From Candidatus Thorarchaeota archaeon (GTDB taxonomy: Archaea; Asgardarchaeota; Thorarchaeia; Thorarchaeales; Thorarchaeaceae), in the NCBI GenBank assembly GCA_019057475.1, contig DXJO01000056.1, positions 1 to 50,902 on the forward strand: DNA of 50,902 nucleotides. Reading direction: 5' to 3'. This document shows, in pieces, positions 20,748 through 28,739 of the stretch. Under the pieces are notes generated by a model, which did no database searches, had not been told where the DNA came from, and worked only from the letters and a program-made list of their open reading frames with translations. Within the stretch, counting starts at the first letter, position 1, and each line of letters starts with the position of its first letter. The translations under genes were made by a program, and so were the position numbers.

Positions 20748-21377
20748 TTGAGTAAACCAATTCAAGAATGTCAAGGCTCAGGCAGCATTCTTGATCAGGC
20801 GGCTTGTTTCATTAAGAATGCCCAGTATCAGCAGGCTATTGTCACTCTGGAACAGGGGCTCACAGTTGACCCCAATAACAAACCCATGTGGGAGGGCGTC
20901 TTTGCCTGCAATCTTGAGTTGAAGAGGCCAGACAAGGCGATTGAGGCGCTAGACCACATAATTCGTATCGAGCCCAACTCGCAGATTGCATGGGGTGAGA
21001 AGGGGTTCCTACATCTGCTCCTCAATGAAAGCAGCGAGGGCATGGAAGCCTTGCACAGAAGCCTTCGTCTTAAGCCTAGAAACGGTCGTGATTGGCATCT
21101 ATTGGCTGCAGCTTTCATGACTAATGAGCAATGGAAAGATGCGCTAGATGCGCTTGGCAAGGCGCTTTCATTGGAACCGAACTCGGCAATGGGCTGGCAC
21201 AACTGTGCCATATGTTATTTCATTCTTGAGAATTTCGAAGCCGCACTCGTCGCAGCAGACCATGCCCTTGCGTTGGACCCAACACTTGAAGACGATACTT
21301 TGGATTGGATAGACATCGTGCGACAAGCGATGTTAGGGTTCGACGATGATTTCGAAATCGAGTCTGATGCCGGGTAA
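20748..21377 (+). CDS. Tetratricopeptide repeat protein
   Basis: About five 34-aa repeats ending in DP/EP/KP with W...G/A patterns. Confidence 0.88.
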   Translation: MSKPIQECQGSGSILDQAACFIKNAQYQQAIVTLEQGLTVDPNNKPMWEGVFACNLELKRPDKAIEALDHIIRIEPNSQIAWGEKGFLHLLLNESSEGMEALHRSLRLKPRNGRDWHLLAAAFMTNEQWKDALDALGKALSLEPNSAMGWHNCAICYFILENFEAALVAADHALALDPTLEDDTLDWIDIVRQAMLGFDDDFEIESDAG

Positions 21378-21437
21378 TATGTTACCAAAGCTTCCTTCAA
21401 GAACTGGATTATCGAATTGAAGGAGAAAATCCGAGCT

Positions 21438-23354
21438 TTACGTGTTCTCAGTACGAGCCGCTCCGTTGAGTGCAGCTACACTCTCAATCTCATTCTGGAT
21501 TGACCTAGTTTCTTCTTTCAATCCGTGATGTTTTGCAGACTCCAATGCCTCCTCAAGGGCAGTAGTCAGTCGCTCTAACTCTTTCTGACGCTTCGCGTGA
21601 TCGGAGATGGCAAGCATGGCATTACGTTTCTTCGGTATTATTCTAAGTAGACTATGAATTGCCGCCAGAGCGTCTTCCCTGCTGGACAGCACTGTTTCCT
21701 GCTCGTCATCTGAAGCTGATAGGATGCGACCTATTTGCTCATGGAGTTGTTTGTGCTTGTCGAGAGCACCCTTGAGAATCTCCTGGACTTCATTGTCCGA
21801 CTCTGCGTTGGCAAGTTGCTTTTCGAGCTGCTTGATGGTTCGATCAAGGAAGTCCTTTCTCTCGGACAGACTGGTTCTTCGCTGCTCCATCCAGCGCCAC
21901 TCATTCTCCATGCCGTGAATAAGAGCAACCGCTTGATTCACCTTGCGCTGATAATTCGCGAGCTTCTCCTTGGCAGCCTCAAGGTCAGATTGTAGATTAT
22001 CAGTGAGGTAAGTTAGCTGATAACTTAGCATGTCGTCAGCATTGTCCTCTGAAAGCGTACGTGACTCTCGAATGGCTGATTCGGCATTACTCCAAAGAGA
22101 GCCAATCTCCGTTTCATCCCTCAGGGTTTGGCCTTTAAGCTCAAGCTCGTCTGATATCTGTTCAATCTCCTTATTGATGGATTGAATCGTTTCAATCCTA
22201 GACCGGAGTGATGCTTTGCTTCGTCTGCCGCTGATTTCTCGTGTCAGCTTCTCACGTTCCTCAGGAACGGCTTGCAGAGCGTGAACATTGTCGATTAGAA
22301 GATGTAATGCAGTGTCATACTCCTCCATAGCCTTGGAGAAGTGTCGCTCCTGCAGAAGATTGTCGCCTTGGCGTTGATGATTCAGCACGGACTCTAGCAC
22401 ATCATAGGGCGATGTTTTGAGTAGGTCGTCATCTTGAATTCGATTATCAGCATTGCACAAATCCAGTGCTTGCCCTTCAAGAGAAATGCCTATGACCGCC
22501 AATCCTTCTGAGGATGCAACATATATCAGATCATGGTCAGCTGAAACCATTCCGTACTTGCTCCCATTCTTCCTGACCTGACCCAATTGAGCATCTTTCT
22601 TAAGATCCCAAATGGTTAGGAAACCAGCAGTCGAAGACGTAACGAGATAAAGATTATTAGCCCACATTGAAACCAAGGGCTCATCAGTATGCGATTCCAA
22701 CGTCCGAACATGGTTCCATCCAACACGGTCCCAGAGCTTCACATCACCTGAGGCCAGACCCACCATGATAAACTGGGAGTTGCCTGTTACAGCAGTACCG
22801 CGGTCTGTCTTTTCAAGCACAGCGAGCTCAGTTGGTGCTGTATCAAGATCAGGGGTCCAGACCACTGGAGCTTCCTTCTTGGTTCCTGAGCATATTACGC
22901 TGCCATTTGACCAGAGCATTGTTATTTCGGACTTGTGAAGTGACCAGCTTGAAGTTTCGTTAGTGCCACTCTTAATTGACAATAGACGTCCTTCACGGGT
23001 GCCAATGTAAAAACAGTCACCGTGAAGATCAGAGGTTAACGCATGATAGCTGAGCTCGAACCAGCCAATCATACCCCAAGTTCCCTTTCGCCACATATAC
23101 ACTCGTCGTTCACAGGTGGCGTATACATGGTCTTTGTCAACGTGTACAGCTAATGGTTCAGAGTTGGTTTCACCTAGTTCAGCAACAAGCTGCCAATCAC
23201 CCTTAGACCACACTCTCACGTACTTGTCCTTGCATGCAGCGTAGAGAAACCGGTCATCATAACTAATGTCAACTGCGTCTACCTCAAGTACAGTCACTTC
23301 CTCGTGAGTTATCGAAGATGATGCTGGCGCAGAATTGTCCTGCTGACCGGACAT
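21438..23354 (-). CDS. WD40 beta-propeller protein with MIT/TPR-like helical bundle and C-terminal coiled coil
   Basis: WD-type repeats over aa ~20-290 (VRVWS, VYMWR, VKLWD, LTIWD), then an E/K/L-rich helical region. Confidence 0.85.
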   Translation of the reverse strand: MSGQQDNSAPASSSITHEEVTVLEVDAVDISYDDRFLYAACKDKYVRVWSKGDWQLVAELGETNSEPLAVHVDKDHVYATCERRVYMWRKGTWGMIGWFELSYHALTSDLHGDCFYIGTREGRLLSIKSGTNETSSWSLHKSEITMLWSNGSVICSGTKKEAPVVWTPDLDTAPTELAVLEKTDRGTAVTGNSQFIMVGLASGDVKLWDRVGWNHVRTLESHTDEPLVSMWANNLYLVTSSTAGFLTIWDLKKDAQLGQVRKNGSKYGMVSADHDLIYVASSEGLAVIGISLEGQALDLCNADNRIQDDDLLKTSPYDVLESVLNHQRQGDNLLQERHFSKAMEEYDTALHLLIDNVHALQAVPEEREKLTREISGRRSKASLRSRIETIQSINKEIEQISDELELKGQTLRDETEIGSLWSNAESAIRESRTLSEDNADDMLSYQLTYLTDNLQSDLEAAKEKLANYQRKVNQAVALIHGMENEWRWMEQRRTSLSERKDFLDRTIKQLEKQLANAESDNEVQEILKGALDKHKQLHEQIGRILSASDDEQETVLSSREDALAAIHSLLRIIPKKRNAMLAISDHAKRQKELERLTTALEEALESAKHHGLKEETRSIQNEIESVAALNGAARTENT

Positions 23355-27674: not shown

Positions 27675-27689
27675 GTGGATGGTGACCTA

Positions 27690-28739
27690 ATGAGCGAACC
27701 GTTTCCGATGGATGAATTGGTTGACAGGCTCCTCTTGATTGCTACACTGAACTCTACACTGATTCATTTCCTATTGAGTTCCCAGATTGAGGGTAGCATA
27801 GATCCGGATAGGGTAGATTCACTAACTCAAGGGTTAAAGAGAACCCGGAAATGGATGGAGGATGCTACCACATCAGAAGGCATACCCTCTTCCACCGCAA
27901 ACATCATGGGCTTGATAGTGAAAAGACTCTCTCAGATAGAGAGCCTCCTTCCGAAGCTCTCAGTCATCGCAAAGAAAGCTGAGGTCCAAGGAAGCCCAAC
28001 TCAAGAGATACTATCGCTCCTTGAAGACAGCACTAGATCTGCTGGAGACTCAATCCCTTTTGGAGGGAAATCTAGTATTGTTCCCTTGGTTGAGGGGGCA
28101 GCCCCACCGCCTGAAGAAGCTTTCAGAAAGGTACAGGTCGAGGACGACGAGTGGGGTTTGATAGGAAAGACTCAGCGGCTAATCAAACAGTATTCCAAGC
28201 GGTGTCACGTGCTGTTGCCCATTTTCTGGCTCGAGGTTGTAAGAGACATTCACAAGTACAAGTCAAACTCACCCTACGCCAGCGAGATTATTGAAATACC
28301 TGCGAAGATTGCATCTCAGATTGTGAAGATTCTATTGACTGAAGCTCCAGGTGCAAGACTTTTGCAGGATTTGTCCAAGAAACGGCCTGTTGAGATCTAC
28401 TTGGACCCTTCAGAAACCGAGCGTGTTGAGAGAGCAGTATCAAAGTACTTCTCCGGACTTGAAGGCGTCCTCAGTGGTGCAACTCCCAAACCTGCAGACA
28501 AGGTTTCAGAGGCACAGATGATCTTCGACGGTTTTGATTGGGGTGGGCCTGAATTGGAGAAACGAATCATAAAGCGGTTCAATCAGCGGTGTGAGGAAAC
28601 CCTCCATGATGCAGAAACCGCTACTGATCCCGCTAGGCAAGTCATCTATGCTGAAGCCACAAAGCTGCTCTGCAAACTACAGCACGCGCTCCTTGCCGAA
28701 CCCAGATTCAGAGAGATACTGGCCCAGATGAAACCGTAG
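27690..28739 (+). CDS. Helical hypothetical protein, third gene of the tubulin-like operon
   Basis: GGTGA RBS and ATG 15 nt after the tubulin stop; soluble and helix-rich. Confidence 0.8.
   Translation: MSEPFPMDELVDRLLLIATLNSTLIHFLLSSQIEGSIDPDRVDSLTQGLKRTRKWMEDATTSEGIPSSTANIMGLIVKRLSQIESLLPKLSVIAKKAEVQGSPTQEILSLLEDSTRSAGDSIPFGGKSSIVPLVEGAAPPPEEAFRKVQVEDDEWGLIGKTQRLIKQYSKRCHVLLPIFWLEVVRDIHKYKSNSPYASEIIEIPAKIASQIVKILLTEAPGARLLQDLSKKRPVEIYLDPSETERVERAVSKYFSGLEGVLSGATPKPADKVSEAQMIFDGFDWGGPELEKRIIKRFNQRCEETLHDAETATDPARQVIYAEATKLLCKLQHALLAEPRFREILAQMKP

Follow-up and report, generated by a model that had tools for sequence, protein, structure and literature searches.

The window is a stretch of 50,902 nucleotides from a Candidatus Thorarchaeota archaeon (assembly GCA_019057475.1, contig DXJO01000056.1). 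It carries a group of five genes, whose coordinates are collected in Table 1. Three of them lie on the same strand and encode a long helical protein, a tubulin-like GTPase and a 349-residue protein, with 18 nt between the first two genes and 15 nt between the second and third. The original prediction, made from the letters of the window, described the locus well. All five open reading frames, both short gaps, a sequence like a ribosome-binding site (RBS) ahead of each gene of the operon and the divergent gap are present in the sequence. As had also been claimed, no sepF, cdvB, parA, vWA or kinase gene adjoins the five genes. The genome encodes FtsZ1, FtsZ2, SepF and two Snf7 (ESCRT-III) proteins on other contigs, unlinked to the operon.

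The 349-aa gene has an alternative start, an in-frame GTG at position 27675, immediately 3' of the GTPase stop codon, from which the product would be 354 aa long. A scan for promoters and terminators of the sigma-70 type, a model unsuited to archaea, gave results at chance level.

Table 1. Genes and putative signals of the five-gene region.
Feature	Positions	Strand or place	Basis
TPR protein, 209 aa	20748-21377	+	ORF, Pfam TPR families
WD40 propeller + helical protein, 638 aa	21438-23354	-	ORF, Pfam WD40
Divergent intergenic region, 210 bp, 5' of operon	23355-23564		sequence inspection
TATA-like TTTTAAAA, putative promoter element	23514-23521	within 210-bp divergent gap	inspection
RBS-like GGAGGA	23553-23558	ahead of rod gene	inspection
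Helical-bundle rod (predicted), 898 aa, partner 1	23565-26261	+	ORF, AF2 model
RBS-like AGGAGA	26266-26271	ahead of GTPase gene	inspection
Asg.Tub GTPase, 464 aa	26280-27674	+	ORF, Pfam PF00091
RBS-like GGTGA	27681-27685	ahead of 349-aa gene	inspection
Partner 2, 349 aa	27690-28739	+	ORF, predicted fold

The GTPase matches PF00091 (Tubulin) with 70.1 bits (E 3.8e-19, cut-off 33). By sequence, it is a member of Asg.Tub, a CetZ-like clade of the tubulin/FtsZ superfamily that Santana-Molina, del Saz-Navarro and Devos named in 2023 (PMC9871819). The supplement of that paper lists OLS26264.1 and Thorarchaeota rows. OLS26264.1, which is homologue P0115 from LC_3, is 51% identical to the GTPase over 95% of the query (E 2e-143) and falls into one clade with it in a tree. 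The published C-termini of the Thorarchaeota rows match that of the GTPase almost residue for residue. A published tree places Asg.Tub outside the tubulins.

GTPases 97% identical to the query are found on Candidatus Thorarchaeota contigs, and the named close homologues are almost all from Asgard archaea. A few are labelled Bathyarchaeota or Thermofilum; these sit inside the Baldrarchaeia cluster and are possibly mis-binned. When 50%-clusters are searched, only two score under 1e-100. The gene is single-copy in most genomes, and its product is about 85% identical across the Thor family, compared with 70-76% for metabolic neighbours.

The closest solved structures are those of CetZ (PDB 4B46, 4B45 and 3ZID; E 1e-13 to 3e-8), and the match is limited to the N-terminal domain. 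A profile of the C-terminal domain, searched against the PDB at E up to 10, finds no CetZ, no tubulin and no solved relative. One short match to H11 of CetZ 4B46 lies below threshold. Residues 396-455, a candidate H11-H12 region, are conserved and helical-looking and have no profile match.

The GTP loops are conserved in 52 aligned members, T1 as GECG and T4 as GGGTGCG, a loop of the GGGTG(S/T)G type. T7 reads PTTDLAD, with D284 and D287 invariant in all 52 sequences and threonine in place of the asparagine that usually precedes the T7 aspartates. Membership of four better known families was considered and rejected. FtsZ is excluded by a score of 29 bits against TIGR00065 (cut-off 295), by a T1 that is not of the GGGGGN type, by a T7 without NxDxxD and by the presence of two separate FtsZ genes. 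True tubulins give weak matches in the N-terminal part only (E about 1e-5 to 1e-7), and there is a single gene rather than an AtubA/B tandem pair. FtsZl1 is excluded by 16 bits against PF13809 (cut-off 27), the missing fused coiled coil and the missing vWA or kinase neighbours. Finally, the TubZRC partition family does not fit partners without a DNA-binding family or chromosomal, housekeeping surroundings without a mobile element.

The spread of the operon can be followed by profile searches for the GTPase, the rod and the 349-aa protein in 400 Asgard species genomes. Strong GTPase matches occur in nine families, which by their database names cover Thorarchaeia, Hermodarchaeia, Hodarchaeales, Baldrarchaeia, Borrarchaeum and Asgardarchaeia. 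The rod profile matches 129 genomes and the 349-aa profile 124, in the same nine families. Outside them these two profiles give one weak match (E 2e-4) and nothing in the 135-genome family f22. The weak GTPase matches found outside the nine families, in a search without a positive-control genome, cover the N-terminal part and lack the C-terminal domain. Most Asgard families are without the trio.

At the loci examined, the order rod, GTPase, 349-aa protein is kept in all nine families, and no other neighbour is kept across lineages. This holds while identity of the GTPase to the query, outside the Thor order, is 41-62%. The LC_3 locus, home of the named Asg.Tub member OLS26264.1, has all three genes. 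At a small number of loci in Hodarchaeales and Thor (L133, L134, L082 and G388), inserted genes interrupt the operon, and a second Hodarchaeales copy consists of rod and GTPase without the 349-aa gene (7 loci). The GTPase tree, which has long outgroup branches and is used for within-family grouping only, groups by host family. Related genomes are not independent; the nine families nevertheless span several Asgard classes. Together these comparisons support the view that the rod, GTPase and 349-aa genes form a dedicated, co-inherited three-gene module.

The original prediction had proposed a dedicated filament module and a synteny check of all five genes across Asgard genomes. That check divides the group. 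The dedicated unit stands, as a trio kept in nine families; the five-gene reading falls, since WD40 and TPR accompany the operon only in the window's family. There the WD40 gene adjoins the operon in 46 of 64 loci and the TPR gene in 44, many of the loci being contig-limited. Genes for an acyl-CoA ligase subunit (55/64) and IPP isomerase (48/64) are as syntenic. Neither the WD40 nor the TPR gene is present at 42 loci from the eight other families.

The distribution of the proteins themselves is equally narrow. The helical half of the WD40 protein occurs in 64 of the 85 genomes of the window's family and nowhere else. No WD40 orthologue is found in genomes of the eight other families, nor, with a full-length profile, in G388-G390 (96-99% complete), G332 and G363, all of which keep operon genes. 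The TPR orthologue is restricted to the window's family, and elsewhere only generic TPRs with about 30% identity or less appear. Judged by synteny and these orthologue searches, the WD40 and TPR genes are local neighbours and not core parts of the module. A core role was rejected on three grounds: orthologues from a single family, the missing WD40 gene in near-complete genomes that bear the operon, and housekeeping genes that are as syntenic.

A five-gene system could still be imagined, with the WD40 and TPR proteins as co-regulated handlers of the GTPase. It would account for how often both genes adjoin the operon in the window's family, and for the loci without the WD40 gene, where the rod gene has the TPR gene immediately upstream on the same strand. 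Their absence from the eight other families, the operon-bearing genomes without the WD40 gene and the equal synteny of the ligase and isomerase genes leave such a system with very little probability. Because of its position at the WD40-less loci, TPR may have at most a Thor-specific accessory role. The same results remove the idea that the two proteins are analogues of eukaryotic tubulin handlers.

The first product of the operon had been described as an 898-aa coiled coil. It is helical, and a chain of short helical bundles fits better. In the AF2 model (pLDDT 86, pTM 0.39) helical bundles follow one another in series, so that the predicted protein is a flexible rod of bundles rather than a single coiled coil. 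Members of the family range from 873 to 1397 aa. In Hodarchaeales, the rod is lengthened by tandem copies of a unit of about 115-120 aa, which in the window's rod lies within residues about 215-445. Searched with segment profiles, the rods of LC_3 and L146, both absent from the alignment on which the profiles were trained, contain three or four copies of the unit. The repeat is proposed because of these extra tandem copies; profile-profile self-comparison of rod segments gives a weak repeat signal (best probability 53%).

Two parts of the rod stand out by conservation. One is the turn joining helices 2 and 3, near residues 56-65, which carries the motif G-F-(F/L/M)-K-K-R in Thor, Hod and Asgardarchaeia; in Hermod, Borr and Baldr it is degenerate, mainly a basic patch. 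The other is the C-terminal part of about 150 aa, the best conserved of the protein. No clear transmembrane segment is present in the rod, the GTPase or the 349-aa protein.

Profile searches of the rod against Pfam and the PDB give nothing significant. Fold searches against the PDB (Foldseek, VIA), with the whole 898-aa model as query, list PRC1, EzrA and dynein tail at E 0.08 or worse (Foldseek E 0.23-0.82), which is generic helical-bundle likeness. Feature searches of the ESM Atlas are blank or return the rod's own cluster only. Likeness to EzrA, which acts with FtsZ, and to PRC1, which acts with microtubules, is one of working principle: an elongated chain of helical bundles accompanies a tubulin-family filament. 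Neither matches the rod significantly in sequence or structure, and EzrA has a transmembrane anchor that the rod lacks.

This likeness raises the question of cell division. In an accessory division system the GTPase would work with FtsZ1 and FtsZ2, and the rod would be a septal analogue of EzrA, whose structure 4uxv its architecture recalls. The match to 4uxv (E 0.82) is not significant, the genes for FtsZ1, FtsZ2, SepF and ESCRT-III lie elsewhere in the genome, and most Asgard families do without the trio. An accessory division role is accordingly very improbable.

The third protein of the operon is predicted (pLDDT 84) to consist of a three-helix bundle (residues 7-99), a disordered linker (102-134) and a helical C-terminal domain, which is more conserved than the bundle. 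Profile searches against Pfam and the PDB find nothing significant, and fold searches (PDB by Foldseek and VIA; Atlas) return generic helical-bundle matches only. The VIA matches span residues 1-104, so the C-terminal domain was barely probed. Comparison of the rod with the 349-aa protein reveals no homology between them. A complex prediction for the GTPase (residues 12-460, with GTP and Mg) and the 349-aa protein scored 0.00 twice; it was made without controls and weighs neither way on binding.

A divergent relative, P0136, has no rod gene at its locus. A 262-aa gene lies 3' of it and weakly matches the C-terminal domain of the 349-aa protein (E about 0.002). P0136 lies near smc-scpA, on a single contig.

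Systems of the TubZ/PhuZ type, which segregate DNA or position cargo, provide another possible model. The 349-aa protein would be the adaptor and the rod a linker. TubZ systems are three-part cassettes, the basic patch of the rod could bind nucleic acid, and the smc-scpA genes near P0136 would suit a role in segregation. That neighbourhood is, however, known from one contig, and no HTH, RHH or other DNA-binding family is found in the rod or the 349-aa protein. The operon is chromosomal with housekeeping surroundings, and its tree is grouped by host family. A segregation or positioning system is therefore improbable.

The reading preferred here is a three-protein filament system, separate from division and with a job at the cell cortex, and it has a somewhat better than even chance of being right. 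It is suggested by the tight spacing, co-orientation and co-inheritance of the genes, by their synteny in nine families, and by the retention of the GTP loops and of both T7 aspartates. In tubulin and FtsZ, the acidic residues of T7 act in trans within the protofilament. By analogy with that biochemistry, the GTPase is expected to self-assemble, and may form dynamic homopolymeric protofilaments, with subunits joined head to tail and GTP hydrolysed at the interface between them. Since the glutamate of T1, the cysteine of T4 and the missing asparagine of T7 are non-canonical, its dynamics may differ.

Alternatively, the three proteins may form a stoichiometric complex that does not polymerise. 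The GTPase would then be a nucleotide switch, or a template similar to gamma-tubulin, on a long helical scaffold, for example in membrane remodelling or trafficking. Tight gene coupling suggests a fixed stoichiometry, the very high conservation of the GTPase fits many constrained interfaces, and the residues of T1, T4 and T7 depart from the canon. A precedent is FtsZl1, a tubulin-like GTPase with a fused coiled coil and helical domain, an unrecognisable T6-H7 and vWA or kinase genes alongside, for which membrane remodelling has been proposed (Makarova and Koonin 2010, PMC2875224). None of these FtsZl1 features is found at this operon; the likeness lies in pairing a tubulin-like GTPase with helical and coiled-coil elements. 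The T7 aspartates, both invariant, come into play in trans only once the protein polymerises. A non-polymerising complex is rather unlikely.

For the partners in such a filament system, the roles of nucleator, cross-linker or anchor suggested in the original prediction are conjectural. The rod may tether or space filaments as a chain of bundles similar to spectrin or EzrA, with which it shares tandem helical-bundle repeats in the AF2 model and the Hodarchaeales units; this is a weaker suggestion than polymerisation of the GTPase. Its hydrophobic and polybasic N-terminal turn could dock on the surface of a membrane, and the conserved domain at its C-terminal end could grip the filament or the 349-aa protein. 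If the rod docks at one end and holds at the other, the number of tandem units would set the spacing. The 349-aa protein, with its two domains, may serve as an adaptor or regulate assembly. The system's likely task would be to shape or organise the cell cortex, in the way that CetZ acts on cell shape. In its fullest form, this would be an ancient cortical cytoskeleton, with a repeat-tuned spectrin-like rod that tethers a tubulin-like protofilament to the membrane and an adaptor of new fold; so detailed a picture is less likely than not.

Among known systems, CetZ (Haloferax CetZ1 and CetZ2) is a comparable archaeal tubulin relative outside division, and CetZ genes differ in having no partners of the rod or 349-aa type. 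AtubAB, OdinTubulin and BtubABC belong to the same superfamily, the first two in Asgard archaea, and BtubABC also encodes a filament partner in its operon. True tubulins form an A/B pair, in contrast to the single GTPase gene here. Roughly 1% of Asgard genomes have a true tubulin; the trio is present in some 30% of the 400 species genomes.

The original prediction allowed that the locus might already be described, and in part it is. The Asg.Tub clade has its name, and PMC9871819, working with four sequences, mentions in general terms neighbouring genes for unknown proteins with coiled-coil regions. It describes no fixed trio, nine-family range, repeat-tuned rod, second Hodarchaeales copy or function. 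An Asgard archaeal clade described as related to CetZ, probably Asg.Tub, serves only as an outgroup in another study (bioRxiv 10.64898/2026.02.15.705738). A literature search, mainly of open literature with most subscription journals outside its scope, found the term "Asg.Tub" in one paper only and no paper on the operon, its conservation or its function. The present analysis adds the negative test of WD40 and TPR and evidence for variation in rod repeat number.

The three-gene module is some thirty times as common among Asgard archaea as true tubulin, and is present in every Hodarchaeales family genome set examined. An operon of three predicted soluble proteins is compact and open to direct reconstitution, and there are Hodarchaeales strains in culture whose transcriptomes and proteomes are public (bioRxiv 10.1101/2025.02.26.640444). 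The trio could reveal a filament system behind Asgard cell shape, together with two new classes of tubulin-family partners. If the cortical-cytoskeleton reading is true, its presence in Hodarchaeales would mean that systems of filament plus organiser evolved independently of microtubules in a lineage close to the eukaryotes.

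The 349-aa partner 2, the third gene of the operon, may begin further upstream than its ATG at 27690. A GTG stands in frame directly 3' of the GTPase stop codon (window 27675-27689), and from the sequence it is a possible coupled start, yielding a protein of 354 aa. Downstream of the operon, a gap of 80 nt in Thorarchaeia precedes an acyl-CoA ligase alpha-type gene. A homologue of this ligase (33-37% identical) also lies directly downstream of the operon in the Borrarchaeum loci L121, L122, and L124. Elsewhere in the window, an ABC solute-binding protein gene adjoins the peptidase C39-like and DUF3160 genes, and the remaining genes are those of ordinary metabolism.

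A few genomes have additional genes inserted within the operon, which break it up (loci L134 in genome G058 and L133 in G061, and G388:C69). In L134, an ORF of 1202 aa is inserted between rod and GTPase, and the C-terminus of this GTPase reads identically to that of the published B3-JM-08 member. In G388, the GTPase and partner 2 are about 8 kb apart.

Two further tubulin relatives occur in other surroundings. The P0136 locus has no rod gene; smc-scpA and pyrimidine genes are nearby, and the 262-aa gene that follows P0136 weakly matches the C-domain motif of the 349-aa protein. The genes on either side of P0147 are unassigned, with a cluster of ubiquitin-like, E2, JAB, and ThiF genes and a beta-propeller gene close by.

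The rod itself varies. Baldrarchaeia-type rods (L101-L104, L125) carry, in place of the central repeat expansion, an insertion of about 150 aa near the N-terminus, immediately past the basic turn. Some Hodarchaeales have a second Asg.Tub copy, a two-gene unit of GTPase and rod (about 1140 aa) that lacks the 349-aa gene. These second copies form their own clade and keep the T7 aspartates.

Locations of neighbouring genes and tubulin-family relatives
Feature	Location	Remark
Acyl-CoA ligase alpha-type gene	window 28820-30226	same strand as operon, downstream
Peptidase C39-like and DUF3160 genes	window 43448-47295	minus strand
P0136, divergent Asg.Tub relative	L140:8001-10149	32% identity; Logan contig
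P0147, another unclassified tubulin-family gene	L143:8001-11238	
Second Asg.Tub copy, Hodarchaeales	L106 (G067), L110 (G072), L127 (G077), L129 (G068), L131 (G073), L132 (G061), L139 (G074)
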